A stretch of DNA of 64,000 nt, taken from the NCBI GenBank assembly GCA_031402865.1, contig JANNST010000052.1:4089-68088 (forward strand). The letters are read 5' to 3'. The notes beneath the pieces were generated by a model. That model was not told the origin of the DNA. It ran no database searches and saw only the letters and a list, made by a program, of their open reading frames with translations. The first letter of the stretch is position 1. Every line of letters begins with the position of its first letter. Position numbers and translations under genes: made by a program. This DNA comes from Chloracidobacterium sp. GTDB taxonomy: Bacteria; Acidobacteriota; Blastocatellia; Pyrinomonadales; Pyrinomonadaceae. This document shows positions 14,521 to 58,503 of this stretch, in pieces.

Positions 14521-14522
14521 CC

Positions 14523-15974: not shown

Positions 15975-15980
15975 TGTTTA

Positions 15981-16119
15981 AGAAGCGGGGGCAAGCCGCC
16001 CTTCCGAACCTGAAATCTGTGCAAGGTCGATTGATATATTTTACCTTGAAATCAACTTAAATATCTCGAAGTAAGTCTGGATAATTACAGGTTGGGAAGG
16101 GCGGCTTTGCCCCCGCTCT
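15981..16119. repeat. long-loop inverted repeat (AGAAGCGGGGGCAAGCCGCCCTTCC arms, about 90-nt loop)
   Basis: Arms 15981-16005 and 16096-16119 are reverse complements with 2 mismatches. The arm start AGAAGCGGG resembles the perfect palindrome at 42024-42086. Confidence 0.75.
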
Positions 16120-16124
16120 TTCGC

Positions 16125-19388: not shown

Positions 19389-19420
19389 TTAAGAGATTAT
19401 AGCCGCAAGCCTGAATTAAT

Positions 19421-19502
19421 AGCCGCAAAAAGGCTCAAAAATCCCAAAAAAGATATTGAGTATATTTCTTACTTTTTGCGCTTTCTGTGCCTTTTTGCGG
19501 CT
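19421..19502. repeat. hairpin of the AGCCGCAAAAAGGC.CA.AAA family
   Basis: The left arm agccgcaaaaaggctcaaaaatcccaaaaaag pairs with the right arm actttttgcgctttctgtgcctttttgcggct. The last 2 nt overlap the argH stop codon. Confidence 0.8.
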
Positions 19503-20883
19503 ATTCCATTTTTTTCTTTGCAGCCAAAAGAGCTTCAGCAACGCGTTTGGGTGATGTTCCGCCGGTTTGGGATTTGCTGGCAAGGGTTTGTTCGAGGCTC
19601 AATGCGTTGAAAACATCAGCTTCGACTTGATCCGAGACCTTCGCTAGATCTTCGAGGCTCATTTGGTGCAGTTCTTTATTCTGTTCGATGGCAGAGAGCA
19701 CAATTCGGCCGACGGTGTCATGCGCGGTGCGGAACGGGACGCCTTTTTTTACGAGGTAATCGGCAAGCTCGGTAGCGTTAAGATAGCCGTTGACGGCGGC
19801 TTCTCGAGTTCTCGCTTCGTTTACGGTCAAATTGTTCAGCACAACAGCCGCGACATTCAGGCACATTCGCACCGTGTCTACCGTGTCGAAAACCGCTTCT
19901 TTGTCCTCCTGCGTGTCCTTGTTGTACGCCAGCGGCAGCCCTTTAAGTATTGCAAGCAAAGCGGTTTGATGGCCGAAGATGCGGCCGGCCTTGCCTCGCA
20001 AAAGCTCAAGCGCGTCTGGATTTTTCTTCTGCGGCATGAGGCTCGAACCGGTAGACACGGCGTCGCTGAGAGTAATAAAGCCGAACTCTGTCGTCGCGTA
20101 AATAATCAGGTCTTCGGCAAGCCGCGAAAGGTGTACCATTATGAGCGAACACGCCCCGACGAATTCGACGGCGAAATCTCGGTCCGAAACGGCGTCGAGA
20201 CTGTTTGCCGAAACGGCATCGAATCCGAGTTCGGCCGCAACGGCTTCGCGGTCGATATTGAAACTAGTTCCGGCAAGCGCGGCCGAGCCGAGCGGCAGAA
20301 TATTCATACGTCGCGCGGCGTCTGACAGTCGTTCGAGATCACGGGACAGCATTTCAAAGTACGCCAGACACCAATGGGTCCAAAGCACGGGCTGTGCACG
20401 CTGAAGGTGTGTGTAGCCGGGCAGGACTGCTTCCTTGTGGCGTTCGGCAGCGGCGATCAGTGCAGCCTGCATACCTTTCGCATCATTTCGAATGTGCTCA
20501 ATCTCGTCACGAAGCCAAAGGCGAAACGCCGTCGCAACCTGATCGTTGCGGCTGCGGCCCGTATGGACTTTTTTTCCGGTGTCGCCGATGAGCTCGACAA
20601 GTCTCGATTCGATAAACGAATGCACATCTTCCGCATCGGAATCCATATAGGCGGGATCGCCAGCGGCTAGTTCGAGTATTGTCCGCAACGCTCCTGTTAG
20701 GCCGGCGTTTTCGTCCTCAGTCAATATTCCCGCCCGCAAGAGTCCATTGGCATGAGCAATACTCGCGCGGACATCGGCGGTTAACAGCCGTTTATCAAAA
20801 CGAAAGGAATTGTTGAATTCTGCGAAGGTTTCATCCGGCTTCCCCGTGAATCTGCCGCCCCAAAGCTGATCGGATTTGTCCAT
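19501..20883 (-). CDS. argH: argininosuccinate lyase
   Basis: Fumarate-lyase signature GSSLMPQKKNPD, with full-length ArgH-like sequence (LWGGRF, TGRSRNDQVAT). Confidence 0.97.
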   Translation of the reverse strand: MDKSDQLWGGRFTGKPDETFAEFNNSFRFDKRLLTADVRASIAHANGLLRAGILTEDENAGLTGALRTILELAAGDPAYMDSDAEDVHSFIESRLVELIGDTGKKVHTGRSRNDQVATAFRLWLRDEIEHIRNDAKGMQAALIAAAERHKEAVLPGYTHLQRAQPVLWTHWCLAYFEMLSRDLERLSDAARRMNILPLGSAALAGTSFNIDREAVAAELGFDAVSANSLDAVSDRDFAVEFVGACSLIMVHLSRLAEDLIIYATTEFGFITLSDAVSTGSSLMPQKKNPDALELLRGKAGRIFGHQTALLAILKGLPLAYNKDTQEDKEAVFDTVDTVRMCLNVAAVVLNNLTVNEARTREAAVNGYLNATELADYLVKKGVPFRTAHDTVGRIVLSAIEQNKELHQMSLEDLAKVSDQVEADVFNALSLEQTLASKSQTGGTSPKRVAEALLAAKKKME

Positions 20884-24462: not shown

Positions 24463-24491
24463 TCGTTGAGCATAGCAGAAGGGAAATTTTA

Positions 24492-24657
24492 ACGCAGAGA
24501 CGCAGAGACGCAGAGACGCTGAGGAAGGAAGGATTAGCCACGGATGAACACAGATGGACACAGATGAATCTCGATATTTTCTGGTTTTCCTATCCGTGTT
24601 CATCCGTGTAAATCTGTGGATGAAATTCTTTTCTCTCTGCGTCTCCGCGTCTCGGCG
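24492..24657. repeat. nested palindrome: outer GCAGAGAC octamers, inner CACGGATGAACACAGATG arms
   Basis: The outer arm acgcagagacgcagagacgcagagacgctgag pairs with ctctctgcgtctccgcgtctcggcg. The inner arm ccacggatgaacacagatggacacagatg pairs with tatccgtgttcatccgtgtaaatctgtgg. Confidence 0.85.
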
Positions 24658-24667
24658 GTGAAAAATC

Positions 24668-25927
24668 CTATCCAAGATAACCGCGGAAGTTCGCCGGGAT
24701 CGCCGTGTACTTCGGAAAAAGCTTTGCAAGATCTTTTGTACCGAGGTGTTTGCTGGCAGCTTCGGCAAAGACATCTCGGAAGTCTGTTGTCAATGCCAGG
24801 TCGCGGCCTTCGTTTAGCTGGTCGGGTTTTAGGCCTTTCCAGTCGCCGTAGACCTTGCCGCCCTTTACGGAATTGCCTAGCACGAACATCGCGTTGGCGT
24901 GGCCGTGATCTGTGCCGCGTGATCCATTTTCGCGGGCCGTGCGGCCGAACTCTGACATTGTCAGCAGAACCACGTCGTCCATTCGCTGGCCAAGATCGGT
25001 TGCGAATGCGGCGATAGCGGCGCCGAAATCGCGAAGCAGGTTCGCAAGCTGGCCGCGGGCTCCGCCTTGGTTAACGTGCGTATCCCAGCCGCCAGCTTCG
25101 GCGAATGCTACTTCTAATCCCACACCCGCTTTTATCAACTGCGCGATCTGCATAAGCGAGCGGCCAAGCGGCGTTGTTGGATAGATCGCACCGTTCTCAG
25201 GCTTGTATTTTGCGGGGTTTGCCTGCTTCAAAAAATTGACCGCTTCGAACGTTTCCTTGCCCGTTTCACCCAGGCTGTCCTTTGTTGCCTGGCCGTAAAC
25301 GCCCTCGAAACCGCCCTGCACATTCTTTGTATAAACGCCGGCTTTGATGGCAAAATCGGCGAGGTTCGTCATCGCGATTGACGGTGAACGTCCGTATAGC
25401 GCTCGGGGCAGTTGCTGTGTCATGGCGACGGCGCGAAACGGCGAATCGTCTTTGCCGGACGTCGCCTGCATTGCCCGATTTAACCAGCCGTCACGTGTAC
25501 CCTTGAATCCTGGCGTGCCGGACTCCATATAATCCTGAGCGTCAAAATGCGAACGCGTGTTGTCGGGCGAACCGGCTGAATGAATAACGGCAAGCTGTTT
25601 CGCGGCCCAGAATTTTTCCAGCGGTTTGAGCGACGGATGCAGGCCGAAAAAGCCATCCAGATTCACGGCACCGTCAGTCTTATTGGGTGCGGGAATAGCA
25701 ATCGTGCGGCGGATATTGTAATACTCGCTGTCACCATGCGGAACAACCATATTCAGGCCATCGACCGCTCCGCGCTGGAATATCGTGACCAAAACCTTCT
25801 TTCTACCGTAACCGTTTTTAGTATCGGCCGCGTTTGCAAACTGGTGTAGAAAGTCCGGTGCGGCGGCCATCATGCCGAAACTTGCCAGTCCGATACCGCT
25901 CGTCTTTAGAAAAAATCTTCTGTCCAT
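24668..25927 (-). CDS. DUF1501 domain protein (sulfatase-like fold, Tat signal)
   Basis: Twin-arginine-type N-terminus MDRRFFLKTSGIGLASFG. SEFGRT..ENGS.GTDHGHAN is characteristic of DUF1501. Confidence 0.85.
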   Translation of the reverse strand: MDRRFFLKTSGIGLASFGMMAAAPDFLHQFANAADTKNGYGRKKVLVTIFQRGAVDGLNMVVPHGDSEYYNIRRTIAIPAPNKTDGAVNLDGFFGLHPSLKPLEKFWAAKQLAVIHSAGSPDNTRSHFDAQDYMESGTPGFKGTRDGWLNRAMQATSGKDDSPFRAVAMTQQLPRALYGRSPSIAMTNLADFAIKAGVYTKNVQGGFEGVYGQATKDSLGETGKETFEAVNFLKQANPAKYKPENGAIYPTTPLGRSLMQIAQLIKAGVGLEVAFAEAGGWDTHVNQGGARGQLANLLRDFGAAIAAFATDLGQRMDDVVLLTMSEFGRTARENGSRGTDHGHANAMFVLGNSVKGGKVYGDWKGLKPDQLNEGRDLALTTDFRDVFAEAASKHLGTKDLAKLFPKYTAIPANFRGYLG

Positions 25928-26873: not shown

Positions 26874-27515
26874 TGCGAAAGCCCGCACGAAGTAAGGGCG
26901 ATACACTCAACGAACCCAATCATCCGTTTCAAACGGCACATCGTCCTGACAATAGAGAACGTAGTTCACAGCCGCCTCGACGTGGGGCGGCTTCCACAAA
27001 TAGCGCCGACTCCGGCCCCGGGACCAAACTCGCTCCGTAGCTCCGACTAGTCCGAGTTCCCTCAACCGTTTCGTCGCAAATGCTTTCATCGCATCAGCAA
27101 TCCTTTCGGGCTTCGCAGCAGCGGATGCTACTGCATGAACATGATTCGTGCGCACGTTCAGCGCATGGAGCCCATAATTTCTTTGGCCGCACAGCATCTC
27201 AATAGCGTCCGTAACGGCTCGTCGCTGGTCGGTTTTTAGTATTACAGGAGACTGCGCCATTTTTTCCTGCATACGTTCTTGAAGCGGCAGATTCGGATCA
27301 AGTTTTACTGTGCCCGGTACATCACGGTTGCTTCGGTTGATCGAAGATCGGTCATCGCCGTGCAGCCACGTTCCGAATGTCCGAAAGGTCATCAGGTATG
27401 CAAGGGGAAACTCGTTTTCTCCGTAGATATCAAATCCGTAGTCGTCGAGCATTTTGAGTTTGAGCGTGCCTCCTTCACTTGAGCATATCGCCCTTACTTC
27501 GTGCGGGCTTTCGCA
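26874..27515 (-). mobile_element. RAYT-like unit: Y1 (HUH) transposase gene bracketed by inverted 35-nt REP-like repeats
   Basis: TGCGAAAGCCCGCACGAAGTAAGGGCGATACACTC at 26874-26908 has its reverse complement at 27481-27515 (33/35 identical). Confidence 0.7.
26907..27452 (-). CDS. IS200/IS605-family Y1 transposase-like protein (REP-associated tyrosine transposase candidate)
   Basis: HUH motif NHVHAV and a C-terminal Tyr region NYVLYCQ. About 181 aa from the internal ATG 27452. The longer track ORF (to 27611) runs through the flanking repeat and the GH92 3' end. Confidence 0.72.
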   Translation of the reverse strand: MLDDYGFDIYGENEFPLAYLMTFRTFGTWLHGDDRSSINRSNRDVPGTVKLDPNLPLQERMQEKMAQSPVILKTDQRRAVTDAIEMLCGQRNYGLHALNVRTNHVHAVASAAAKPERIADAMKAFATKRLRELGLVGATERVWSRGRSRRYLWKPPHVEAAVNYVLYCQDDVPFETDDWVR

Positions 27516-30648: not shown

Positions 30649-30665
30649 AGCTTTTTAAGGAAGAT

Positions 30666-30750
30666 TTTTGCCCGCGAATAACACGAATTGCCGCGAATAT
30701 CTCTTAAGAGATTTCTTATTCGTGTTTATTCGCGTAATTCGCGGGCAAAA
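30666..30750. repeat. hairpin of the TTTTGCCCGCGAATAA family
   Basis: ttttgcccgcgaataacacgaattgccgcgaata (30666-30699) pairs with tattcgtgtttattcgcgtaattcgcgggcaaaa (30717-30750), between the GH92 start and the GH20 stop. Confidence 0.8.
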
Positions 30751-30753
30751 TTC

Positions 30754-33048
30754 CTAATGCACAAACTCGCCGCCGTAAGCCTGTCGTAAACCTTGGCCCT
30801 TAATGCCCCAGCGGAAGCGAAACGCCGCGTCGCCGCCGCGATGGTTGTAACGCAACGTCATCTTATGCAGCCCGGCCTTTAGCGGAACTATAGCGGAACG
30901 CACTTTTCGGTCTTTTGTACCTGAATCACCTATAATATCCCCGCCGCCGAGAGTGACCGCGGCATCCCAAGTCGAATCAACCTGAAACTCGTAAACTCCG
31001 TCGGTAGGAACACTAAAATAGCCGTCAAACGACACCGCAAACGGCCGCTTGAGAACATCCGGGGTCCGCGAAGCGAACTGCTGCAGACCAATGCTCTTTG
31101 TCTCGCCGCCTCGTATCGGCATCGAGCCGTCATCGGGCGGCATTGCAAAGGCGAATGTTACGCCGGGACGCTTCTCGCTTAATTGCATCGGTTCAAACAT
31201 TTTGCCGCGGACTATCGAAGCGGCGTAGACGGCACTTTTGCGGCCAGCCGGATTCACTACGACTGTTTTGAGCGTCTTTATGTCGAGAACACGGTCTGAA
31301 GCGCCTGTGCCGTTCAACGCGATTTCGATCGGTTTTGTATAGCTCTCCGACCTTTCATCGGGCGTAGATCCGTCGGTCGTGTAGTGGACGCGAGTTCCGG
31401 GAGCCGGCCGCAGTTCGACGGAAATCTTATCGCCCTCGGTAACCTTGTTTTGCAAGCCTCCGGGCTCCGGAATCCGATAATTTACATTCTGCTTATCCAG
31501 ACGCGGAAACTGAGTAGCGAGCCGGTTTGAAAAATCCTCGAAAGTACTGGCTCCCGCACGCGACCACAGAACTTCGGCCAAGGCGATCATACGCGGGAAC
31601 GACATGTATTCGACGTGCGAAGGCGTTTTTATATATTCGGTCCAGATGTTGGCCTGGCCGCCGATAACGTATTTGGCTTCGTCCGCTGTGAGTTCGGGTG
31701 GGACAGGATCGAAGCTGTAAACCTTTTCAAGCGGGACGTAACTGCCGATGTTGAGCGGTTCGTAGGCAGGGTCGCCTTGGCCATAGTCGAGATAGACGTA
31801 ATCGGTCGGCGTCATTATCACGTCATGTTTGGACTTCGCTGCTTCGATGCCGCCTTTCATCCCTCGCCATGACATTACCGTAGCGTTCGGAGCAAGGCCG
31901 CCTTCGAGAATTTCATCCCATCCGATAATCTTTTTGCCTTTCGAATTGATGTACTTTTCGATGCGGCGGACAAAATAGCTCTGCACCTCATGCTCGTCCT
32001 TTAGGTTCTCTTTCTTTTTGAGTTCCTGCACAAAGGCCGATTCCTTCCAATGATCCTTCAGTACTTCATCGCCGCCGATGTGGATGTAGGGCGAATCGGG
32101 GAACAAGGCTATCGTTTCGTCGAGCACGTCTTCGAGAAATTTAAAGGTCGCCTCTGTCGGGCAATAGACCTCCTTGAAAATTCCCCATGTCGTCTGCACC
32201 TTGTATTGATAATCCGCTTTGCAGCCAAATTGCGGGTATGCAGCCAAAGCGGCTGAGGCGTGGCCAGGCAATTCGATCTCCGGAATCACGGTGATAAACC
32301 TTGCCTTTGCGTATTTGACGACATCCTTTATCTCGTCCTGCGTGTAAAAACCGCCGTGCGGGATGCCGTCGCCGATGTATGGGGTTAGGTTACGCTCCTT
32401 AACCGACTCGGGGCGTTTTGAGCCGATTTCGGTCAGCTTCGGATATTTTTTGATCTCGATCCGCCAGCCCTGATCTTCGGTCAAATGCCAGTGAAACGTG
32501 TTGAATTTGTACTGCGACATGAGGTCGATGAACTTTTTGACGAATGAGACGGGCATGAAATGCCGTGCTACATCGAGATGCATGCCACGATATTTGAATC
32601 GCGGTAAATCGCTGATAGCGGTGTACGGAAGCTCGATGCGGCCTGAATATTTGACGGAAATTATCTGAATAAACGATTGAAGGCCGTAGAACAAACCACG
32701 CTGATTGCCCGAGATTCGGATCGCATTCGCGTCTATCTGTATCTCATAGTCTTCAGCGTCCGCAGATTTGCCGACAACCGTGTCGAAAACTATTGCGTCC
32801 TTCGCCGGACGTTTTTTTACGACCGCCAGTTTGAACCCGTAATTTTTCGACAGGAAATCGTTTAAGATCGCTGCCGTTTCTCGGCTAGCTGTATCGGTTG
32901 CCGCGATCTTTGTCTTATCGCTAAAAATAAAACTCCCGCGTCCGTATTCGATCGAAACCGGTTTCGGAATGATATTGATCTCAACGGGCTGGGCGAAGGC
33001 AAAACCGGAGAATGCTAGCACAAGAATGAAGGATGTATATGTTTTCAT
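30754..33048 (-). CDS. GH20 beta-N-acetylhexosaminidase with C-terminal PA14-like domain
   Basis: GMHLDVARHF, FHWHLTEDQGWR and HIGGDE (catalytic D-E) are present. The start was trimmed to MKTYTSFILVLAFSGFAFA because the first 7 track codons lie in the repeat at 33059. Confidence 0.9.
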   Translation of the reverse strand: MKTYTSFILVLAFSGFAFAQPVEINIIPKPVSIEYGRGSFIFSDKTKIAATDTASRETAAILNDFLSKNYGFKLAVVKKRPAKDAIVFDTVVGKSADAEDYEIQIDANAIRISGNQRGLFYGLQSFIQIISVKYSGRIELPYTAISDLPRFKYRGMHLDVARHFMPVSFVKKFIDLMSQYKFNTFHWHLTEDQGWRIEIKKYPKLTEIGSKRPESVKERNLTPYIGDGIPHGGFYTQDEIKDVVKYAKARFITVIPEIELPGHASAALAAYPQFGCKADYQYKVQTTWGIFKEVYCPTEATFKFLEDVLDETIALFPDSPYIHIGGDEVLKDHWKESAFVQELKKKENLKDEHEVQSYFVRRIEKYINSKGKKIIGWDEILEGGLAPNATVMSWRGMKGGIEAAKSKHDVIMTPTDYVYLDYGQGDPAYEPLNIGSYVPLEKVYSFDPVPPELTADEAKYVIGGQANIWTEYIKTPSHVEYMSFPRMIALAEVLWSRAGASTFEDFSNRLATQFPRLDKQNVNYRIPEPGGLQNKVTEGDKISVELRPAPGTRVHYTTDGSTPDERSESYTKPIEIALNGTGASDRVLDIKTLKTVVVNPAGRKSAVYAASIVRGKMFEPMQLSEKRPGVTFAFAMPPDDGSMPIRGGETKSIGLQQFASRTPDVLKRPFAVSFDGYFSVPTDGVYEFQVDSTWDAAVTLGGGDIIGDSGTKDRKVRSAIVPLKAGLHKMTLRYNHRGGDAAFRFRWGIKGQGLRQAYGGEFVH

Positions 33049-33058
33049 AGTAGCGAAA

Positions 33059-33201
33059 GGCGGAAACACGACTGGTAGGGAGTGTGTTCTTCAAGATTCG
33101 ACGAAAGAGGCCCAGTCGCTACGAATTCCGGCTACGACACGGAAATCCTTTCCCGCTCGCTGACGCCGGGAAACACACTTCCTACCGGTCGTGTTTCCGC
33201 C
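33059..33201. repeat. GGCGGAAACAC hairpin element, copy 1 (long loop)
   Basis: The left arm is 33059-88. The right arm 33174-33201 reads CACACTTCCTACCGGTCGTGTTTCCGCC. The 83-nt interior contains agtcgctacgaattccggctacgac. Confidence 0.85.
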
Positions 33202-33211
33202 TGTGCGTTCT

Positions 33212-34312
33212 CTACAAACCGATTATATCCAAAAACCGTTTTAGTTCATCCGGCAGCGGCAGGACAAACGCTAATTGCTCTTTTGTAACGGGATGTGTGA
33301 ACGAAAGCTTTTCTGCATGCAGGAAAAAACGGCCCATTATTCGGATCGCATTCTTTACGTCTATGTTCGCGACCGTGTTGTCACGGCCTTCGTTATAGGT
33401 TTCGTCACCCACTACGGGGTGATTGATCGACGCAAGATGGACACGAATCTGGTGCGTGCGGCCGGTTTTTATCTCGACCTCGACAAGTGCGAATTTATCG
33501 AACCGCTTGCGGACCTTCCACAATGAAAGGGCGTTTCGGCCATTTGCGGCGACTGTCATTTTGGTGCGGTGCCAGCGGTCGCGGGCCATCGGCCGGTCGA
33601 TGATGCCCGTGTTGTCACGCGGACTTCCGTGAACGAGGGCGAGGTAGCTCTTATAAACCTCGCGCGTACGGAACAGCTCGGACATCGCTTCGTGTATCTC
33701 CTCGCTTTTGGCGACAACGATGAGGCCGGAGGTTTGTTTATCTAAACGGTGGACGATGCCGACGCGACTTGTATTGGTTGCAGAAGCCTGCACGTTAGTA
33801 AGGGCGATATGCTCAACGTTGGCGGTATCGCCCTTACTTCGTGCGGGCTTCTGCGGCAGAACCTCGTCACCTGCTGACGCAGTTGTTTCTGACCTTACAG
33901 GCTGCATCCCGCTAACGCCGAAATGGTAGGCGATTGCGTTTGCCAATGTGCCCGAACTAACGCCGGCACCCGGATGAACGACCAATCCGGCCGGTTTGTT
34001 GATAACGGCAAGATATTCGTCTTCAAAAACAATTTCGAGCGGGATATTTTCGGGCTCGAACCGGGCGGGCGGGGCTTCGGCAAGGTCTACGTCGATGTCA
34101 TCATTTTCGCGCAGTTTATACGATGGTTTTGCCGTCGCCTGGTTAACCAGAACGTCGCCGTCTTCAATCAAACGCTGAAGACGAGACCGCGACCAGCCTT
34201 CGATGTTCTCCGCTAGAAAGGCATCAAGGCGCTTTCCTACTTCAGAACCGGTAATTGCGAAATTTAGTATCGGATTTTCGTCAGGCGATGGCGGTGTGTT
34301 AGCTGGGTTCAA
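33212..34312 (-). CDS. rluD: 23S rRNA pseudouridine synthase (RluD/RluA family), carrying an in-frame REPIN-like insertion
   Basis: S4-like N-terminus (RLDAFL...SRSRLQRLI), catalytic GIVHRLDKQTSGL, and HQIRVH. Confidence 0.9.
   Translation of the reverse strand: MNPANTPPSPDENPILNFAITGSEVGKRLDAFLAENIEGWSRSRLQRLIEDGDVLVNQATAKPSYKLRENDDIDVDLAEAPPARFEPENIPLEIVFEDEYLAVINKPAGLVVHPGAGVSSGTLANAIAYHFGVSGMQPVRSETTASAGDEVLPQKPARSKGDTANVEHIALTNVQASATNTSRVGIVHRLDKQTSGLIVVAKSEEIHEAMSELFRTREVYKSYLALVHGSPRDNTGIIDRPMARDRWHRTKMTVAANGRNALSLWKVRKRFDKFALVEVEIKTGRTHQIRVHLASINHPVVGDETYNEGRDNTVANIDVKNAIRIMGRFFLHAEKLSFTHPVTKEQLAFVLPLPDELKRFLDIIGL
33780..33854. repeat. 75-nt REPIN-like inverted doublet of the RAYT-associated REP, inside rluD
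   Basis: The reverse complement of the right half contains AAGCCCGCACGAAGTAAGGGCGATA, 25/25 identical to the repeat at 26879-26903. The left half is a diverged direct copy. Confidence 0.85.
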
Positions 34313-35111
34313 TTATTTCCTTTCTACCGGCGGTTCTGATTCGCATAATCATAAATACGATCGTGCTTGCCGCGACAACGAGGCTGACGAGCTGCGAGGT
34401 TGAGAGGCCGGTCATCGTTGTCAATCCGAATAAGTCTCCGCGCGGGTCGTCGCGGATAAATTCAATTGAGAAACGAAAGATCGAGTAAATAATTCCGTAG
34501 GCGATCAGGATCTGGCCGTCAAATTTCTTGCGGCGGTGCAGCCATACCAGCAGGCCGAAAACGGCGAGCATTGTGAACGATTCGATGAGCTGTGTCGGGT
34601 GCAGAAAGAGATCACTGCCGCCGGGTCCGTACATCGGAACGCCGGTGTATTCGTTGCCTTTCTCGGTAAAATGCACGCCCCACCAGAGATCGGTCGGCTT
34701 TCCCCAACAGCATCCGGCCGCGAAACAGCCCTGGCGGCCAAACGCCTGTCCAAGAGCGAGGCCGGGAGCGAAAGCATCGGCTACCTTCCAGAACGGGAGC
34801 TTGTAAAAATAGACAAGCACCGCGACGGCAAGAAATCCACCGATCAATCCGCCGTAATAAACTCCGCCCGAACGTAGAAAATCGAGCGAGAAGATCTGAA
34901 CATTGTCTTCAACAAACAACATCAGTATCTTCGATCCAAGCAGCCCGCCTAGAAGCGCCCACAGGCCAAGATCGTAAATACGTTCGCGCGGCAACCCGTC
35001 ACGCGCCGCCAGCCTTGATGCGACGAAGAGAGCAAGCAACATCCCAACGGCAAGGAAAATGCCGTAGGTGGTTATTGGGAAATTGCCGATGCGGAATAGC
35101 TCTGGATACAT
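34299..35111 (-). CDS. lgt: prolipoprotein diacylglyceryl transferase
   Basis: The start was trimmed to MYPELFRIGNFPITTYG because the track start lies in the repeat. Lgt motifs YGGLIGG, GR.GCF..GCC.G and HPTQL are present. Confidence 0.9.
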   Translation of the reverse strand: MYPELFRIGNFPITTYGIFLAVGMLLALFVASRLAARDGLPRERIYDLGLWALLGGLLGSKILMLFVEDNVQIFSLDFLRSGGVYYGGLIGGFLAVAVLVYFYKLPFWKVADAFAPGLALGQAFGRQGCFAAGCCWGKPTDLWWGVHFTEKGNEYTGVPMYGPGGSDLFLHPTQLIESFTMLAVFGLLVWLHRRKKFDGQILIAYGIIYSIFRFSIEFIRDDPRGDLFGLTTMTGLSTSQLVSLVVAASTIVFMIMRIRTAGRKEIIEPS

Positions 35112-35130
35112 GGTTTCGATAAGCAATGAA

Positions 35131-35219
35131 GGCGGAAACACGAGCCGTAGCGAGTGTGTTCTTCGTCAGGCCGGGTTATTCGTCATTCAGACACACTCCC
35201 TACCGGTCGTGTTTCCGCC
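35131..35219. repeat. GGCGGAAACAC hairpin element, copy 2
   Basis: The left arm is 35131-35160. The right arm 35192-35219 reads CACACTCCCTACCGGTCGTGTTTCCGCC. The loop is 30 nt and contains the lspA stop codon. Confidence 0.85.
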
Positions 35220-35707
35220 TGCTTTTGTTTGCTCAGGAACATATCTATTATCATTAATCCGGCACCCATAACAATCGCCATGTCGGCGACATTGAATGTC
35301 GGGTAGTGCCATGAGCCGAACTGAACATCGATAAAATCGACGACATACCCGAGCCTGATCCGGTCCGTAACGTTCCCGGCGATTCCAGCAAGGAGCAATG
35401 CGAGCGCACCCAAAATACGATCATCGCTGCGCGGAGTTCTCCAAAAGAAATAGAGTACGAGCGCACCGGCGATAAACGCAACTACCGATAATCCCCAGCG
35501 GCCCGCGTCGCCGTGGTCGTCTAACATGCTGAACGCCACGCCCGTATTTTGAGCGTAGGCAAAATTCAAAAAACCTGAAATGAGAGGTATGTCTTCGCCA
35601 AAACGCAGCCGACGCACCGCCCACGCCTTGCTCGCCTGATCGATCATAAAAACCCCGCCGGCAATGGCGAGGTATGCTATTTTCCAAAGAATATCTTTTT
35701 TATTCAC
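35183..35707 (-). CDS. lspA: lipoprotein signal peptidase II
   Basis: LspA motifs N.G.AF and VVDFIDV....PTFNVAD. The last 11 codons ([11 protein letters not shown]) are encoded by the repeat arm. Confidence 0.9.
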   Translation of the reverse strand: MNKKDILWKIAYLAIAGGVFMIDQASKAWAVRRLRFGEDIPLISGFLNFAYAQNTGVAFSMLDDHGDAGRWGLSVVAFIAGALVLYFFWRTPRSDDRILGALALLLAGIAGNVTDRIRLGYVVDFIDVQFGSWHYPTFNVADMAIVMGAGLMIIDMFLSKQKQAETRPVGSVSE

Positions 35708-36147
35708 TGTGCCTTTTTCGGTTCGGCGTAGAATGATTTATTTACTATCTTCCACTCACCGTTTATCTTCAGCAGCGTCATATAATCTACGAATTTCACG
35801 CTGGGATAATCAAGGACGATCCTCGCAACCGCCGCGTTCCCCGTGATGTCGACTGCCTCGATCCGCCTGTGATCCTTACGCTTCTCCTCGTCCGCCGCCG
35901 GTTTACCGGTAAATGCCCGCTTGATAAAGGCATCGAGATTATCCATCGCGAACTTGCCGTCGCGAATCCAGATCATATTGCCCTCGGTGTGAAACGCCTT
36001 CCTGGCAAATTCCGGATCTCCCGTCGCATGGGCTTTGATGTAATTTTCGAGCGGAACTTTGACCGCTTCTTTATCGGGTATCTGAGCTTTGGAAGCAACG
36101 GCGAATGTGCAAAGAACGAATGCGAATAATGTGTATACTTTTCTCAT
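35704..36147 (-). CDS. NTF2-fold (putative lumazine-binding-like) secreted protein
   Basis: Start at MRKVYTLFAFVLCTFAVASKAQ (signal-like, GGAGG upstream). The C-terminus VDYMTLLKINGEWKIVNK is typical of the NTF2-like family. Its stop overlaps the lspA start by 4 nt. Confidence 0.55.
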   Translation of the reverse strand: MRKVYTLFAFVLCTFAVASKAQIPDKEAVKVPLENYIKAHATGDPEFARKAFHTEGNMIWIRDGKFAMDNLDAFIKRAFTGKPAADEEKRKDHRRIEAVDITGNAAVARIVLDYPSVKFVDYMTLLKINGEWKIVNKSFYAEPKKAQ

Positions 36148-36224
36148 TTCAGAAAATTCCTCCATTCCTCAAAATTCACTATAAGAATACGCCGCAATCC
36201 GACTACCGGTTTCGCCTAAAAGTC

Positions 36225-36857
36225 CTACTCTTCGTTTCTTTCGGCCGCCGAAACGACCGAGAGCCAAAGTTCGACGTATTTTCCCCGTACAAAGGGATCA
36301 AGACGGTCGGCGAAGTCTTCGCCCAGATTCTTTATCTTGATCAATTCCTGCACATCCGCAAGATCTTTCAGCCGGTCGCCGGCGGTCATCCCCGACGTTA
36401 GTTTCAGCTCGACCAGCTTGTCAAGCGTTACGGTTTTTACTCCATCGATAAGGACTGAGAAATCTGAAGGATCGGGAAATTGGACCGGTTTGGGCAAGCC
36501 GTCACCAGGAAATTCGCCCGATGTGATAATTTCGACGGGTATATTTTCGTCAGTAGTTCGAAACTTTTTCTTTGCTCCTTCAAAGGCTGGTCGGTAGCCC
36601 AAACCGACAAGCTTTTCGCGAAAATCTTCCAGCCCCTGTTTGGAAAGAAGCAGGTCGATGTCTTCCGTAAAACGCCTGTAACCGTGACGATTTAAGGCAA
36701 TAGCGCCGATAGCCGCGTAATCGATCCCTTCCCGGTCAAGATCGGCGGCTATTTTGCGCAAGGCTTTGTTAAGCATTCCTTTTCCTTTAAAGAATCTGCG
36801 CCCTTCGTCATAGGTCGCGTCGGGCGAGGACAGTATTGTTTGGAAATCGACTGCCAT
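36225..36857 (-). CDS. nucleotidyltransferase-fold protein (tentative)
   Basis: Start trimmed to MAVDFQT. G..AL..HGY.R.T.DIDLL resembles the minimal nucleotidyltransferase GS-x-D-x-D region. Low certainty. Confidence 0.4.
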   Translation of the reverse strand: MAVDFQTILSSPDATYDEGRRFFKGKGMLNKALRKIAADLDREGIDYAAIGAIALNRHGYRRFTEDIDLLLSKQGLEDFREKLVGLGYRPAFEGAKKKFRTTDENIPVEIITSGEFPGDGLPKPVQFPDPSDFSVLIDGVKTVTLDKLVELKLTSGMTAGDRLKDLADVQELIKIKNLGEDFADRLDPFVRGKYVELWLSVVSAAERNEE

Positions 36858-36859
36858 AA

Positions 36860-37294
36860 CTATTCGGCATACGGGAAAATTGCCTTCGGCGCCTTGTGCG
36901 TCCGCCACCAATCGGCGTAGCAAACATCTGTGCAGCCGATTGCTTTTATGACAACCCGCCATCTACTACCCGTTTTTCGCAGCAATGCGAAAAAGTTGTT
37001 GTCGAACGCGTCGGATTTGAACGCGTCCCAATACACCGTATTGCGGTAATCGGGCCGACCGCCGACGGGATTCTGCGGGGTGCCGCTAACAAATACCCAT
37101 GTTCCCTGCACCTTAAAATTATCGGTCACGAACACGATCCTCTGCTTCAGCTCTTTTTCAACCGGAACGCGTAACGCGTCGAGTATCGCCTTGCGTTCGG
37201 GCGAGCCTTTCTCCGGGGTGTGGGCCGATTGAGCCGACACCATAATAGCCGCCGCGATGATTATCGTTGAACCAACAATGAGCTTACTCAGCAT
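36860..37294 (-). CDS. hypothetical secreted protein
   Basis: Signal-like MLSKLIVGSTIIIAAAIMVSAQS. No family recognised. Confidence 0.5.
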   Translation of the reverse strand: MLSKLIVGSTIIIAAAIMVSAQSAHTPEKGSPERKAILDALRVPVEKELKQRIVFVTDNFKVQGTWVFVSGTPQNPVGGRPDYRNTVYWDAFKSDAFDNNFFALLRKTGSRWRVVIKAIGCTDVCYADWWRTHKAPKAIFPYAE

Positions 37295-37343
37295 ACATTC
37301 TAAGTACATCTTCTTTGTGATTATTGCGTCATAACTTTGGGCT

Positions 37344-37406
37344 CTTTGTGTTGAAAGAAAAGGCTTTCAACACAAAGGACACCAAGCTGGCACAAAGGAC
37401 GCAAAT
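37344..37406. repeat. CTTTGTG/CACAAAG-type hairpin plus trailing units
   Basis: ctctttgtgttgaaag pairs with ctttcaacacaaagga, and is followed by caccaagctggcacaaaggacgcaaa. Confidence 0.75.
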
Positions 37407-37451
37407 GAAGAATTGAGTTCACAGGCTCATCAAGCGCACGCCAGGTTCGAA

Positions 37452-40319
37452 TCACGCGGCCGTCGCCGTCTCTATCTCAGTTAGTGCTTCAATACACCTT
37501 TCGCAGACGGTCGGGTACTGTGCGAACTCTCCAACACGTGTCGAATAGTTCCAGCACCGCTCGCATTTGGTGCCATCGGCCTTCTCGATCGTGACATTCA
37601 TTGCATCGCCTTCGTGAACCTCGACCTGCGAAACGATAAAGATGTAACGCAAATCCTCATAATAGTTTAGGAGAAACATCGTCGTGCCTTTATCAGCTGT
37701 CAGTATCACTTTTGCCTCAAGCGAAGAGCCGATCTGCTTCGCGTTCCGGGCTTCTTCAAGCGCCTTAAGCACCTCATCCCGGATCGCGAAAACACGTTCC
37801 CAATCGCTCAACAACGCACCGTTCACATTTTCGACCGCCTTCGGAAACTCGGCCAAATGAACCGAGGCGACCATTTGCCCGGGTAGATTCTCCCATGCTT
37901 CGTCAGACGTAAACGCGAGGATCGGAGCCAGCAAGCGGCAAAGCGTTTCCGTTATTTGATACAGCGCCGTCTGGGCCGAACGCCGCTCGATCGACCTTGG
38001 TGCGTAAATATAGAGGCGGTCTTTGATGATGTCAAAATAACGTGCCGAAAGCGTGACCGTACAGAAATGATAGATCGCGTGATAGGCCGCTTGAAAATCG
38101 AAATCCTCATAGCCCTTCTGCACTTTTGCGGAAACCTCGTCCAAATTTGCCAGCGCCCAGCGGTCGGTCTCAAGCATTTCGCCGTCGGCGACGGAATCGG
38201 TTTCGACGTTGAACCCATCCAGATTGCCGAGAGCGTAACGCAGGGTATTTCGGAATTTGCGGTAAGCATCGACAATTCGGGAAAGGATCTCATCCGAGCA
38301 GCGTACATCCTCGGTATAATCGACCGCCGCCGCCCAAAGCCGCAAAACTTCGGCACCCGATTTGTCGATGATCTCCTGCGGAGCGGTAACGTTTCCGACC
38401 GATTTGCTTTGTTTCTTGCCGTCACCGTCAACGACCCAACCATGCGTAACCACTTGCCTGTACGGAGCCGTGTCGTGCGCCGCCATTCCGCACATCAAAC
38501 TTGAATTGAACCAGCCGCGATACTGGTCGCCGCCTTCAAGATAAACGTCGGCTGGAAACCGGAGCGTGTCGCCGCGGGTTTCCAGAACCGCCACGCAGCT
38601 TGAACCGGAATCGAACCAAACGTCCAGAATATCGGTCTCCTTTCGGAAATCTGCGCCGTTGCATTTTGAACAAACGTATCCTTCAGGCAGCAGCTCGCTT
38701 TCCGGCCGGTTGTACCAGGCATCCGCCGTTTCGAAAGCGAAAATGTCGGCAACATGATCGACCACTTTCGGATCGGCAACCGGTTCGTCGCAGGCCTGAC
38801 AATAAAAAACAGGTATCGGCACGCCCCACGAACGCTGCCGCGAAACGCACCAGTCAGGCCGGCCTCTGAACATATTCCGCATCCGGTCACGGCCCCATGC
38901 CGGGTGCCATTTGACCTTATCGATATGATTGAAGGCATTGTCGCGGAGCGATATTTCTTCGCCGGTCTTAGCCGCTGCATCCATTGAGATAAACCACTGC
39001 GGAGTTGCACGATAAATTACCGGATTCTTGCACCGCCAGCAATGCGGATAGCGATGGTTGTAATTTTCGACATGCAGCAGAGCGCCTTTTTCGCGAAGCA
39101 ATTCGACGATCTTCGGATTCGCCGTAAAGATGTTCTCGCCGGCGAAATGCTCGACTTCCGAGGTAAACCGCCCTGCATTATCAACCGGGCAATAAATTTC
39201 CAAGCCGTACTCTTTCCCGATTAAAAAGTCGTCCGTGCCGTGGCCGGGAGCGGTGTGAACGCAGCCCGTACCCGATTTTCCGGCGGCCTTGTTTTCGTGC
39301 CGGGCATCAAGTTCGACCTCGGCGTCCGCTTCGCCAAATGTTACGTGCTCGCCGTTCATTATCAGCGAGACGCGGTCTATCCAGGCATGCTGGGCTTCGA
39401 GGCGGTCGAGCTTTGAGCCCTTAAAACGGGCAAGCTCCTTTGTCTCACCAAGATCGCACGTTTCAGCGAAAGCAGCGGCCAGTTCCGACGCGACGATATA
39501 GACGTTTTCGCCGGCTTCAACCGCTGAGTAATCAAAATCCGGGTGAATCGAAATACCGAGGTTTGCCGGCAATGTCCAAGGCGTCGTCGTCCATATAACG
39601 ACGGAAACCATCTTTCCCTCGAGCGCCGGGTCGATCAGAGCGGGATCGGACCGCAGGGGAAATTTGACGTAAACAGAAGGCGATGTGTGTTCCTTGTACT
39701 CAACCTCAGCCTCTGCAAGCGCGGTTTGATCGTGGATGCACCAATAAACGGGGCGCAGGCCCTTATAAACATACCCGCGTTCGAGAAATCTACCGAACAG
39801 GCGTGCCGTCGATGATTCGTATTCCGCCGACATCGTCAGGTATGGCGTGTCCCATTCGCCCAAAACGCCAAGTCGCGAAAAGTCGCGCGTTTGCCCGTCC
39901 ATTGCCTTGGATGCGTGCTCGCGGCAGATGCGACGAAACGTCGAAACGGGAATATCAGCCTTGTTCTTGCCTTTTTCGGCCAGTTTTTTCTCGACGTGCG
40001 TTTCAATCGGCAAGCCGTGACAGTCGTAGCCGGGCACATACGGCGCATCAAAGCCCATCATCGAACGCGATTTGACGACGAAATCTTTTAGAATTTTATT
40101 GAGAGCTGTTCCGATGTGTATATCCGCATTCGCATACGGCGGCCCGTCGTGGAGGATAAACTTGTCGCGGCCCTTTCGCGTCTCCGCGATCTTGTTGTAA
40201 AGATCGATGTCCTTCCACTTCTTCAGCCGCGCGGGTTCGCTCTGACCAAGATTCGCCTTTTGCGCAAAATCGGTCTTGGGTAAATTAATAGTCTTCTTCA
40301 GGTCCAAAGGTTCGGTCAT
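37452..40319 (-). CDS. ileS: isoleucine--tRNA ligase
   Basis: HIGH-type motif [16 protein letters not shown]-type KQSKSVGN, and a C-terminal zinc-binding CERCW...CERC. The start was trimmed to [18 protein letters not shown] because the track start lies in the repeat. Confidence 0.97.
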
Positions 40320-40338
40320 AAAGTTGATGGCATTAAAA

Positions 40339-40408
40339 GGCGGAAACCCGCACGGTAGCAAGGGTGTGATCTTAAAGAGGCACACTCCCTACCGGTCGTG
40401 TTTCCGCC
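40339..40408. repeat. GGCGGAAACAC hairpin element, copy 3 (short loop)
   Basis: The right arm 40381-40408 is identical (28/28) to 35192-35219. The left arm 40339-40368 is more diverged. Confidence 0.85.
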
Positions 40409-40468
40409 TTCGGAGCCAAGGTCCGTGTCAAACTCTAAATTTTATCATCTATCGGAGGAAAAATCCCG

Positions 40469-40786
40469 TTACTCTTCTTCGACTGTACACAGCAGCGGAT
40501 ATTCGCGGGCTTTTGCGAGATTCATCGCCTTTTCGGATTTCATATTAGCTATCTCATAGGGATACACCCCGGCGAGGCCGAGGCCTTCGTTGTGGACCTT
40601 GAGCATTATTGAAAAGGCTTCGGGGGCTGAACGCATGAAGACGTATTCCAGGACGAAAACGACGAATTCCATGGTGGTGAAATCGTCGTTGTGCAGCAGC
40701 ACTTTGAAAAGCTTTGGTTTTTCGAGCTTTGTCTCGCGTTCGGTCAGAACGTCGCCGCCGCGTTCAATGTCGGGAAATTCGGGCAT
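40469..40786 (-). CDS. clpS: ATP-dependent Clp protease adaptor
   Basis: 105 aa. YKVLLHNDDFTTMEFVV.VL is the ClpS core. Confidence 0.9.
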   Translation of the reverse strand: MPEFPDIERGGDVLTERETKLEKPKLFKVLLHNDDFTTMEFVVFVLEYVFMRSAPEAFSIMLKVHNEGLGLAGVYPYEIANMKSEKAMNLAKAREYPLLCTVEEE

Positions 40787-40815: not shown

Positions 40816-40884
40816 AGCCGCAGAGATGCGCAAAAAGCACAAATATGAAGAGAAATTTTGTGCCTTTTGTGCCTTTTTGCGGCT
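40816..40884. repeat. hairpin of the AGCCGCA.A.A.GC.CAAAA family
   Basis: agccgcagagatgcgcaaaaagcacaaa pairs with tttgtgccttttgtgcctttttgcggct. Same family as 19421-19502 and 14491-14520. Confidence 0.8.
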
Positions 40885-42007
40885 ATATCTTATTGACTTC
40901 GAAGTAGGTCTTAATTGCCTTGTATTTCGCGGAGTCGTTCAGGATATCAAATGCCTTAGCGTAATTCTCCAATCCGTCGATCTTGTGCGTCATCATCTGG
41001 CCGAGCCAGCCAAGGTGCATTGCTTCGCATAGGGCCAGATCTTTAACGCCCATTTCGAAATGCTCGCGGCCGGCGTTCACCGTGCCGACCATCGCGCGGT
41101 TGCCGAGCACGAACATCTGATTGATCTTGTCAGACGGGACCTGATCGGTTTTCCGTTCACCGCCCGTGACGGAGGCGAGGATCAGAATACCGTTTTCGTT
41201 CAATGTCTGCATCGCGTCAAAGATGATCGGCGAATAGCCTGTGCATTCAAACACGAGGTCGTACTGATCGTATTTTTTTATCGATTCGGTAATCGGAAGG
41301 TCATCCGTCGAGTCGTACGTCGCGCCTATCGCTAAACACAATTCGGCGTTCAGATAGCCGTCGCCGCTCTGCTTTCCAAAGCTGTGCACTTCGTAACCGC
41401 GCATCCTCAACGCCATTACCGTCAGCAATCCGACGTTTCCCGTTCCCAACACCGCAGCCGTTTTTGGGTGCCAAATCTTGAGGCGTTCCTGAATATCGCT
41501 CGCTTGTTTGAGCCCTTTCTCGATTATCGAAAGCGGTTCAAGCAGAACCCCTATCTCCGCAATCGGCGCCGGTATCCCTACCAAAAAATCGGCGTCTTCG
41601 ACGTAGAAGTCGGCCATGTAGCCATGCAGGCGTGAGATGCCGCGCTCGAAATACTTATCGTCAGTCGTAAAATCCTGCTCGCCGATCTTGTCATAAATGC
41701 TTGAACCGCGCGGGCGCCGCACCGTAGCTACAACGTAATTACCTGCCTCAAATTCCTTAACATTTTCACCCGTCTCAACAACGCGACCAAAATTTTCGTG
41801 GCCAAGTACAAGATAATCAAAGCCCTTTGGCGCGACGCCGTATTCGCCATTGTTGATCTCGCGGTCGGTGCCGCACGCTCCCACGCGAAGCACTTCGACC
41901 AATACGCCGCGTCCGTTTTTTATTTCACTCAATTCCGGTTTTTTCATCTCGATGAGATGAACACTGTTCATTTTTTCTGGAATTACCGCAATCGCCTTCA
42001 TGTTCAT
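40883..42007 (-). CDS. zinc-dependent medium-chain dehydrogenase, glucose 1-dehydrogenase-like
   Basis: VGACGTDREI, LGHENFG and the Rossmann motif VLGTGNVGL. The overall layout resembles archaeal-type glucose dehydrogenases. The substrate is not established. Confidence 0.7.
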   Translation of the reverse strand: MNMKAIAVIPEKMNSVHLIEMKKPELSEIKNGRGVLVEVLRVGACGTDREINNGEYGVAPKGFDYLVLGHENFGRVVETGENVKEFEAGNYVVATVRRPRGSSIYDKIGEQDFTTDDKYFERGISRLHGYMADFYVEDADFLVGIPAPIAEIGVLLEPLSIIEKGLKQASDIQERLKIWHPKTAAVLGTGNVGLLTVMALRMRGYEVHSFGKQSGDGYLNAELCLAIGATYDSTDDLPITESIKKYDQYDLVFECTGYSPIIFDAMQTLNENGILILASVTGGERKTDQVPSDKINQMFVLGNRAMVGTVNAGREHFEMGVKDLALCEAMHLGWLGQMMTHKIDGLENYAKAFDILNDSAKYKAIKTYFEVNKI

Positions 42008-42023
42008 AATAATAAATTTACCT

Positions 42024-42086
42024 CGTTTAGAAGCGGGCTTGCCCGCTGTAAGATAATTGACGCCCGGGCAAGCCCGCTTCTAAACG
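42024..42086. repeat. perfect 22-bp inverted repeat CGTTTAGAAGCGGGCTTGCCCG
   Basis: 42024-42045 and 42065-42086 are exact reverse complements. It lies between the GH63-like stop and the dehydrogenase start. Confidence 0.85.
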
Positions 42087-42119
42087 GCGGATCTTTTTTT
42101 CAAAGGTTTCTCAAAAATG

Positions 42120-56425: not shown

Positions 56426-56591
56426 TCTAACAGACTATGCAAGAGCGGCGGCGGAGCCGCGAGAATCACTAGGCCGCTGAACGGAAAAGCATAGCCCTTC
56501 CGCAGATAGACGGGCGTAACCCGAAGAACAGTCGCCTCCCACCACACGTACGCGAAGCGTTACTACCCATCCTCAGGCAGGAGGGTGTTTT

Positions 56592-56626
56592 AGGAGGCCG
56601 GTCGCTACTGCTCCCGGTTCTGACTG
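56592..56626. repeat. CCGGTCGCTACTGCTCCCGGTTCTGACTG element at the 3' end of the DUF3010-like gene
   Basis: Matches 18555-18590. It provides the last codons LLSQNREQ and the stop of the 56605-57033 ORF. Confidence 0.8.
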
Positions 56627-57090: not shown

Positions 57091-57177
57091 CCTCCCCATC
57101 CGCGAAACGCGGCCTCGCCTCCTTACCACGAGGGAGTTTTTTTTCAAACCCCGTCCCTACCGCTAGCGGTTCTGACT
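57091..57177. repeat. two adjacent repeat units: the CCGCGAAACGCGG-core element and a CCCTACCGCTAGCGGTTCTGAC unit
   Basis: 57091-57136 (cctccccatccgcgaaacgcggcctcgcctccttaccacgagggag) matches the reverse complement of 29465-29513. 57151-57177 resembles the GGTTCTGACT element. Confidence 0.7.
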
Positions 57178-57210
57178 TGTGATAATCTGAGTGCATTTAG
57201 CGAGAGTTAC

Positions 57211-58327: not shown

Positions 58328-58503
58328 GTATTACTATGCACATGGCGCCGTAGCAAATTTTGCAAATGCGCACGTCAATTTGAGGGAAGAACTTACGAGC
58401 AGCGCGATCGTACAAACGATTGCGGAAATAGAGGAAAAGATCAACCAGGCCGAGCCAAAGGTCGATATGATATTCTTAGAAGCGGCAAGCGTTACGGCGA
58501 AGA

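Follow-up and report, generated by a model that had tools for sequence, protein, structure and literature searches.

Inverted-repeat elements between clpS and GH20

The 64,000-nt stretch of a Chloracidobacterium sp. contig analysed here (JANNST010000052.1, positions 4,089 to 68,088; hereafter the window) carries three inverted-repeat elements (copies 1 to 3, Table 1) in a string of genes, all on the minus strand, which Pfam assigned to GH20 hexosaminidase, RluD-type pseudouridine synthase, Lgt, LspA, IleRS and ClpS, in agreement with the gene identities that an earlier annotation of the bare letters (the sequence-only reading) had given to these junctions. The subject of this analysis is the repeat unit from which the three elements are built, its occurrence in related genomes, and the transposase gene that is bracketed by the same unit there.

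All three elements were present as reported, with a chance expectation of 0. The near-invariant 28-mer CACACTYCCTACCGGTCGTGTTTCCGCC was recovered with 0 mismatches on the plus strand at the three minus-strand arms of Table 1 (chance expectation 0.00 in 100 dinucleotide shuffles), and its reverse-complement partners were identified with 1 mismatch in copy 1, with 3 mismatches in copy 2, and with 6 substitutions, aligned without an indel, in copy 3. The loops had been given as about 83, 30 and 12 nt; with 28-nt arms they measure 87, 33 and 14 nt, the earlier figures including a few extra paired bases. In mRNA sense each element is laid out as the perfect arm GGCGGAAACACGACCGGTAGGGAGTGTG, the loop, the partner arm, and a gap of 10-19 nt before an ATG, and the distances from the elements to the ATGs at 33048, 35111 and 40319 were confirmed as 10, 19 and 19 nt. 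The relations to the preceding genes were likewise as described, i.e. 10 nt separate copy 1 from the rluD stop (33212-33214), the loop of copy 2 contains the lspA stop (35183-35185), and clpS, upstream of ileS, ends 60 nt from copy 3. The Peptidase_A8 domain of the lspA product stops at residue 157 of 174, and the residues encoded by the a1 arm of copy 2 lie beyond the domain.

On the minus (mRNA-sense) strand the fold energies of copies 1, 2 and 3 were -83.3 (z = -7.0), -53.0 (z = -5.7) and -46.7 kcal/mol (z = -4.3), respectively. Searches of the three elements against Rfam 15 returned no match at the gathering score, and at E <= 10 chance-level hits only; the sole gathering-level hit in the window was one tRNA at 6844-6928. 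The terminator role that had been considered for the elements found no support, as none of the three was flagged in a terminator and promoter scan or resembled a terminator (GC-rich stem, short loop, U-tract).

Table 1. Inverted-repeat elements of the window and their arms
Feature	Position	Strand	Description
Copy 1	33059..33201	-	REPIN-like doublet with a1/a1 arms and 87-nt loop; occupies the rluD-GH20 spacer
Copy 1 arm (REP unit)	33059..33086	+	Type a1, 1 mismatch; + strand 5'-GGCGGAAACACGACTGGTAGGGAGTGTG
Copy 1 arm	33174..33201	-	Type a1, 1 mismatch; - strand reading GGCGGAAACACGACCGGTAGGAAGTGTG
Copy 2	35131..35219	-	Heterotypic doublet at the lspA-lgt junction; in mRNA 5' a1, 3' b1/A'; 33-nt loop
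Copy 2 a1 arm	35192..35219	-	Consensus match 28/28; encodes final residues of the lspA open reading frame
Copy 2 b1 (A') arm	35131..35158	+	GGCGGAAACACGAGCCGTAGCGAGTGTG; 1 nt off the A' consensus
Copy 3	40339..40408	-	Heterotypic doublet in the clpS-ileS spacer; in mRNA 5' a1, 3' B-like; 14-nt loop
Copy 3 a1 arm	40381..40408	-	Consensus match 28/28
Copy 3 B-type arm	40339..40366	+	GGCGGAAACCCGCACGGTAGCAAGGGTG; subtype ..CCCGC(G/A)CGGTAGCAAGGGTG

Distribution and subtypes of the arms

The degenerate pattern GGCGGAAACACGNNNNGTAGNNAGTGTG, in which 22 positions are fixed, was run against a single genome of each species and matched at least 117 loci (designated by L numbers), all from Blastocatellia (Acidobacteriota), i.e. 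Pyrinomonadaceae, Pyrinomonadales and 'Chloracidobacterium' metagenome-assembled genomes (MAGs). Iterated nhmmer over these loci and the window (0.85 Mb) resulted in a catalogue of 219 arms, comprising 67 inverted pairs (doublets, loops 9-192 nt) and 85 single arms. Clusters of arms occur in L032, L097, L125 and L126. That the exact 28-mer dominates (77 copies) is in part an effect of ascertainment, since the locus pattern fixes 22 positions.

Four arm subtypes recurred across many species, namely a1 (..ACGACCGGTAGGGAGTGTG), b1 or A' (..ACGAGCGGTAGCGAGTGTG), a2 (..CCGACCGGTAGGGAGGGTG) and b2 (..CYRAGCGGTAGCGAGGGTG), together with a further recurrent variant, CGCGCGGTAGCAAG. The A' consensus occurred 23 times across species, and the subtype of the copy 3 partner, CGC(G/A)CGGTAGCAAGGGTG, was present also in L009, L026, L049 and L064. 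Doublets were mostly heterotypic (a1/b1 18, a1/b2 16, a1/a1 10). The sequence-only reading had suggested a constraint on one arm of each element and had noted the divergence of the other; the partners in copies 2 and 3 belong instead to subtypes (A' and B) that recur in many species, and the 'diverged' partner arms are alternative subtypes, not products of decay.

In L032, arms form two clusters (2333-2510 and 3812-4026), each with three direct copies; the clusters are mutually inverted, with GGATTTT-type repeats between, and bracket moeA in an array like the bacterial interspersed mosaic elements (BIMEs). The possibility that the clusters mark a transposase locus was rejected, the enclosed gene being moeA.

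Structure and covariation of the repeat unit

Each arm is a small stem-loop of its own. The unit of about 30 nt has the architecture A-GG-C(G/A)GA-A-[ACAC-GA-CC-GGTA-GG-GA-GTGT]-G-Y, and the fold is strand-specific because of its tandem G.A/A.G interior and occasional G.T pairs. Over 73 distinct arms, the helix within the arm (positions 8-11/24-27 and 14-15/20-21) was paired in 95.2% of cells, double-change cells numbered 52 against 20.3 +/- 2.6 in shuffles (0/500), and the covariation score was 0.333, compared with 0.114 in shuffles and at most 0.06 in slid registers. Arm pair 10-25 was represented by A:T (48), C:G (20) and G:C (1), and pair 14-21 by C:G (35) and G:C (27); the states of these pairs are independent of each other, and the differences between subtypes are compensatory inside each arm. 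A scan for the unit architecture gave 185 matches in the loci and 0 in shuffled sequence.

Directly before the stem the arms open with GG-CGGA or GG-CAGA, which gives the hairpin a C(G/A)GA 5' foot. A canonical GTAG-type repetitive extragenic palindrome (REP) was considered and rejected, as GTAG occupies arm positions 17-20, spanning loop and stem away from the hairpin foot, and is not conserved in L126, where GTTG is found. A second REP family of the same architecture with another stem, CAGA-A-CCGG-GA-GC-AGTG-GC-GA-CCGG, was observed in the window at 18549-18590, 56585-56626 and 57137-57178, and copies of it are nested in doublet loops of L060 and L064.

A HUH-Y1 transposase gene bracketed by the arms

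Transposase genes were sought by tblastn with sequences of IS608 TnpA and of the Escherichia coli REP-associated tyrosine transposase (RAYT), which were used as bait only, and every match was re-tested with Pfam. In L063, a 172-amino-acid (aa) open reading frame (ORF) with a weak Y1_Tnp match is enclosed exactly by two arms, b1 (forward) on one side and a1 (reverse) on the other. Arms were present on both sides of this gene in 8/8 species (L063, L118, L119, L120, L123, L124, L125 and L126), with at least one forward arm ahead of it, 4-71 nt from the ATG, and a reverse arm after the gene, often followed by a further forward arm. In all eight species the gene is directly upstream of a fumarylacetoacetate (FAA) hydrolase gene; ruvC is near it in six loci (L118, L119, L120, L121, L123 and L126), and no ruvC was called in L124 or L125, whose flanks were shorter. 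In L126 the two flanking arms have diverged together (GGCAGAAACCCGACCTGTTGGGAGGGTG). Arms bracketing a HUH-Y1 gene in this manner constitute a REPtron arrangement. Among the options of the sequence-only reading, a mobile repeat family was therefore the right one, as the arm is a stand-alone hairpin unit that flanks the HUH-Y1 gene, and its prediction of the arm as a protein-recognition site is consistent with the units bracketing what would be their cognate enzyme gene in 8/8 species.

More than 1100 homologues of the 172-aa protein were retrieved, many of which carry the JGI label 'REP element-mobilizing transposase RayT' or the NCBI label 'transposase [Pyrinomonadaceae]'. The alignment contains an invariant RTNHAH (HuH) motif, Y(T/V)xxGQ, and a conserved N-terminus with the invariant residues W6, D7, P12 ... 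G23, W25, L26 and H27. The scores remained below the model cutoffs both for RAYT (NF047646, 22-26.5 bits, cutoff 80) and for IS200 (NF033573, 22-25.6 bits, cutoff 55), and the Pfam Y1_Tnp match of the protein was weak. A sequence-profile search of the protein against PDB sequences gave no match. The AlphaFold2 (AF2) model (pLDDT 79.2) had as its top 30 Foldseek PDB neighbours exclusively TnpA of ISDra2, IS608, IS200 or Sulfolobus, or E. coli TnpA-REP 4er8, with probability 1.00 and E = 3e-5 to 1e-3.

Judged by published description, the protein appears to fit best in the 'class 3 TnpA-Y1' group. Class 3 of Quentin et al. 2018 (BMC Genomics 19:475, PMC6006769) comprises 24 proteins, with Solibacter usitatus as an example, and is characterized by a Y----Q motif and high-copy, atypical hairpins with a CnGA foot in Acidobacteria. 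HUH-Y1 systems of class 3 are a proposed intermediate between IS200 transposons and domesticated RAYTs.

A canonical RAYT domain (Pfam Y1_Tnp, E = 9e-12) was also encountered in L045 (754-3990, minus strand), within a 1079-aa ORF with acetyl-CoA-synthetase-like sequence, where it is flanked by translated tandem repeats (RNADT.., LVRNEGRLGPND). This ORF could be a gene that received a REPtron of another repeat family in frame, or an artefact of assembly or ORF calling.

The general form of the elements, with terminal inverted repeats of 28-33 nt, a length of 70-143 bp, variable cores and presence/absence polymorphism, is also that of a classical miniature inverted-repeat transposable element (MITE) mobilised in trans by the DDE transposase of a full-length insertion sequence (IS). 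Output of the empty-site search consisted mostly of repeat-to-repeat matches, and only the L003/L092 and L064/window pairs were usable; in the former, the filled site contains a 42-nt in-frame block with one arm, and the filled/empty comparison showed no target-site duplication. Moreover, single arms are abundant and conserved, the covariation within arms makes each of them a hairpin, the only gene bracketed by arms encodes a Y1 HUH enzyme in 8/8 species, and no DDE IS with these arm ends was found in 0.85 Mb of flanks. On this evidence a classical MITE is scarcely credible.

Insertions within coding sequences

Almost half of the catalogued copies (72/152, i.e. 47/85 singles and 25/67 doublets) are inside ORFs, more than 60 nt within long ORFs and in recurrent frames. 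Coding copies read as (K/Q/E)AETRPVGSV in 33 cases, GGNTTGREC in 6 and TLPTGRVSA in 6, and coding doublets mostly read GGN.SGSEG(A/V)...TLPTGRVSA. In 10/10 host ORFs tested, Pfam domains either span the insert or occur on its two sides; the hosts include M1 aminopeptidases, aldehyde dehydrogenase (ALDH), CarA, saccharopine dehydrogenase, Mfd, a class II aminoacyl-tRNA synthetase, alpha-2-macroglobulin, and a Fer2-FAD-binding dehydrogenase. When four M1 peptidases were aligned, two orthologous insertion sites emerged, with near-consensus arms in three species and decayed arms in the fourth. Doublet length was divisible by 3 in 18/25 coding versus 18/42 intergenic cases (binomial p = 1.3e-4; Fisher p = 0.025). 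The in-frame inserts appear to be translated.

The GGGAG of single arms in L018, L027 and L092 ('GTGTGcccgATG'), which resembles a Shine-Dalgarno sequence, was considered as a ribosome-binding site and rejected, since the ATGs concerned are in the middle of long ORFs with Pfam domains on both sides.

Intragenic REPs are already known, as Di Nocera et al. 2013 (PMC3733652) described them in Opitutus, in Rickettsia (Rickettsia palindromic elements, RPE) and in others; the share found here is high.

Coding palindromes of other families were observed as well. In the window, rluD (33212-34312) has an in-frame insert of about 45 aa (33785-33899, minus strand) between '..YHFG' and 'RVGIVHRLDK', which is encoded by other REP-like hairpins: one with a CAGA foot, consisting of GCAGAAGCCCGCACGAAGTAAGGGCGATA, 16 nt and TATCGCCCTTACTAACGTGCAGGCTTCTGC, and just upstream of it GTCAGAAACAAC...GAGGTTCTGCC. 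A palindrome of a sister family is therefore present in frame in a coding sequence of the window; its hairpin sequence had no exact match in the fetched loci. This sister repeat has further copies, with the 25-mer TATCGCCCTTACTTCGTGCGGGCTT, at 26874-26910/27479-27515, 27486-27510 and 37184-37208, and one inverted pair among them, 95% complementary, encloses 568 nt. Other hairpin families of short tandem 7-8-mers (GACGCAGA, AGTCGAG, TTTTGCGC/GCCGCAAAAAGG and others) occupy intergenic spacers of the window at 2272-2371, 13984-14011, 14493-14523, 15980-16120, 19418-19505, 24482-24668, 30663-30753, 40817-40886, 42011-42099 and 58503-58568; elsewhere such families adjoin arms, and their coding copies read RRGD/RNADT-like peptides. 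Two tandem copies at 7169-7693 (270-nt spacing, 70-78% identical) are probably a repeated domain in a coding region.

Placement, orientation and orthologous sites

Intergenic copies lie close to both a stop and a start codon because the elements fill short operon spacers. In co-directional spacers, the median distance from a doublet was about 3 nt to the upstream stop (copies about 0-16 nt) and about 10 nt to the next start, and the upstream stop was often a TAG inside the arm. In the same spacers the 5' arm was a-type in 5-8 cases and b-type in 9, and single arms were oriented 16:11 with respect to transcription direction. Synteny with the window was retained in L064 ('Chloracidobacterium sp. 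UBA7659', window 32230-40786) and in L105 (window 30756-33714). The clpS-ileS element of L064 is inverted and its loop harbours a further REP; the lspA-lgt doublet (L064 4933-5246) keeps the same two arms around a loop of about 314 nt, against 33 nt in the window; the rluD-GH20 element is intact in L105, sharing the GGAAG variant, and a decayed relic in L064; and the lgt-rluD junction has a copy in L064 and none in the window. Presence and absence, inversion and decay are all observed between relatives.

The four orthologous arms of the window and L064 were 106/112 identical (P ~5e-33), when identity at 4-fold degenerate sites of ileS was 41.7%, i.e. saturated. In the orthologous doublets the loops were unalignable and the arms conserved equally, each at 26-27/28, in place of the arm asymmetry that had been claimed. 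Conservation of arms amid saturated neutral sites indicates that the arms are under purifying selection or homogenised. Long persistence of REPINs, with which this conservation is in line, has been claimed in the literature. The ileS frame of L064 (534-1680) closes after about 381 codons, at an alignment gap relative to window 39158-39275, which could be due to a frameshift, an assembly error or an insertion.

The same arm conservation, and the position of copies close after upstream stops, would be expected of a host-selected intercistronic mRNA element, such as a 3' stabiliser, partial terminator or RNase site, for which the transposase link would be incidental or ancestral. REPs of E. coli stabilise upstream mRNA, and affect expression of the upstream gene when near its stop. 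However, none of the three window elements is terminator-like, half of the copies are within coding sequence, where an intercistronic role would hardly be meaningful, and loops, orientation and presence differ between close relatives. What is conserved is the single-arm hairpin with its CnGA foot and not the long RNA hairpin, and this is what a DNA-recognising enzyme would need. We regard an mRNA element as improbable.

Still less probable is a cis-acting RNA structure steering translation initiation of the downstream ileS, lgt and GH20 genes as a 'starting block'. The hairpins are very stable, they end 10-19 nt before ATGs that have no obvious Shine-Dalgarno (SD) sequence in the window, and the short distance to the next start is general for co-directional intergenic doublets. 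Nevertheless, the presumed preference for sites before start codons did not hold, as copies are found also between convergent or divergent genes and, in 72/152 cases, in frame within genes. Neither did the presumed constant orientation, which varies relative to the downstream gene, with both arm orders in co-directional spacers and the inverted clpS-ileS and decayed rluD-GH20 elements of L064. Single arms, which cannot form the long hairpin, are equally conserved, and Rfam offers no match. The absence of an SD is not special to these genes either, an SD-like 4-mer preceding only about 20% of crudely called genes. The elements are not supported as start-codon control devices, and the results on position, orientation, terminators and SD together go against any position- or orientation-dependent function, in the manner in which the sequence-only reading had itself foreseen that it could fail.

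Interpretation and proposed mechanism

The three hairpins are very probably doublets, comparable to REPINs (REP doublets forming hairpins) and BIMEs, of a mobile REP-type family of Pyrinomonadaceae/Blastocatellia with a RayT-like HUH-Y1 transposase. Several points weigh against this. The transposase gene was not found in the 64-kb window, and co-occurrence of arm and transposase is for that reason seen in relatives only. Binding and cutting of the arm by the 172-aa protein are inferred by analogy. The foot is C(G/A)GA, in place of the GT[AG]G of canonical REPs. The locus pattern favours a1 and b1 arms, which biases subtype frequencies and the 'near-invariance', and genes in the loci were called crudely, by longest ORF. 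Finally, the conservation of arms at orthologous sites is unexplained by plain selfish spread, and host-level function or gene conversion may contribute to it.

By analogy to the established behaviour of IS608 and ISDra2 TnpA and of E. coli TnpA-REP, the 172-aa HUH-Y1 enzyme, putatively single-copy and vertically inherited, would probably recognise the unit as single-stranded DNA (ssDNA) and spread or maintain it. The enzyme would bind the folded top strand of the arm, probably at the replication fork, and cut and rejoin beside it, so that units or doublets could be copied or moved without target duplication, and recombination or template switching between inverted arms might flip doublets. 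Doublets would be the non-autonomous form, with two inverted arms, usually of different subtypes, and a freely evolving loop. Copies land wherever they are tolerated, filling short operon spacers, re-terminating genes (as in lspA) or sitting in frame within genes. The window copies may be viewed as transcribed selfish or commensal passengers in the clpS-ileS...lspA-lgt-rluD-GH20 string, and ribosomes finishing lspA would have to melt copy 2. Effects of the window copies on mRNA stability or translational coupling are possible, and by analogy would be by-products.

More tentatively, and with considerable doubt, the system might be the first well-resolved class 3 REPtron, the units of which are held at consensus and write peptides into about half of their sites, essential genes included. 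If so, the enzyme would homogenise or re-copy resident copies, or the DNA hairpin would have a function at host level.

For annotation, the results remove a tempting but wrong regulatory reading, and they indicate that the family will confuse gene calling in MAGs of Pyrinomonadaceae/Blastocatellia, producing spurious 5' extensions, changed C-termini and inserts in frame. The link between one defined hairpin of 28 nt, with its CnGA foot, and one defined 172-aa enzyme also opens the poorly known class 3 HUH-Y1 proteins to experiment.

Comparison with known systems

One close likeness is to the REP/BIME/REPIN-RAYT systems of Enterobacteria and Pseudomonas, on which Nunvar in 2010, Bertels and Rainey in 2011, and Messing in 2012 reportedly worked. 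Common to both are short hairpin units occurring as singlets, inverted doublets and clusters, heterotypic doublets as in the Y/Z REPs of BIMEs, a transposase gene, putatively in single copy, that has conserved synteny and is flanked by repeats of its own, the long persistence of units at orthologous sites, and the location in operon spacers. In contrast, the present family lacks a 5' GTAG guide beside the stem, its 172-aa protein is outside the RAYT equivalog, and a far larger share of its copies is inside genes.

With IS200/IS605 elements and their MITE derivatives, the palindrome-associated transposable elements (PATEs), the family shares the Y1 HUH fold and subterminal imperfect hairpin ends of the kind recognised as ssDNA, and a doublet resembles a left end joined to a right end with the gene deleted. 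Unlike in IS200/IS605, tnpB is lacking and both ends are the same hairpin type, inverted. The present transposase gene does not appear to be hopping itself, as it is putatively single-copy and syntenic.

Class 3 TnpA-Y1 agrees with the present system in its small protein of HuH-Y1 type, of which the tyrosine motif is Y----Q and the N-terminal extension is conserved, its weak matches to IS200/RAYT profiles, its occurrence in Acidobacteria, and a gene flanked by high-copy atypical hairpins with a CnGA 5' foot (here CGGA/CAGA). The Pyrinomonadaceae family with its 28-nt consensus, subtypes, doublets and coding insertions is not described in the class 3 paper, and the likeness is one of description, not of profile.

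The coding copies are comparable to the RPEs, reportedly described by Ogata in 2000, and to the intragenic REPs of Opitutus terrae (PMC3733652): in each case, in-frame palindromes add about 10-35 residues to products of housekeeping genes, some genes have two copies, and repair and translation genes are among the hosts. The sequences are unrelated, the RPEs carrying a CGTC tag, and unlike the CGTC repeats, which have none, the present family has an identifiable cognate transposase. Its hosts, moreover, are free-living soil bacteria, and RPE-like 'coding palindromes' are thus common beyond Rickettsia, in abundant inhabitants of soil.

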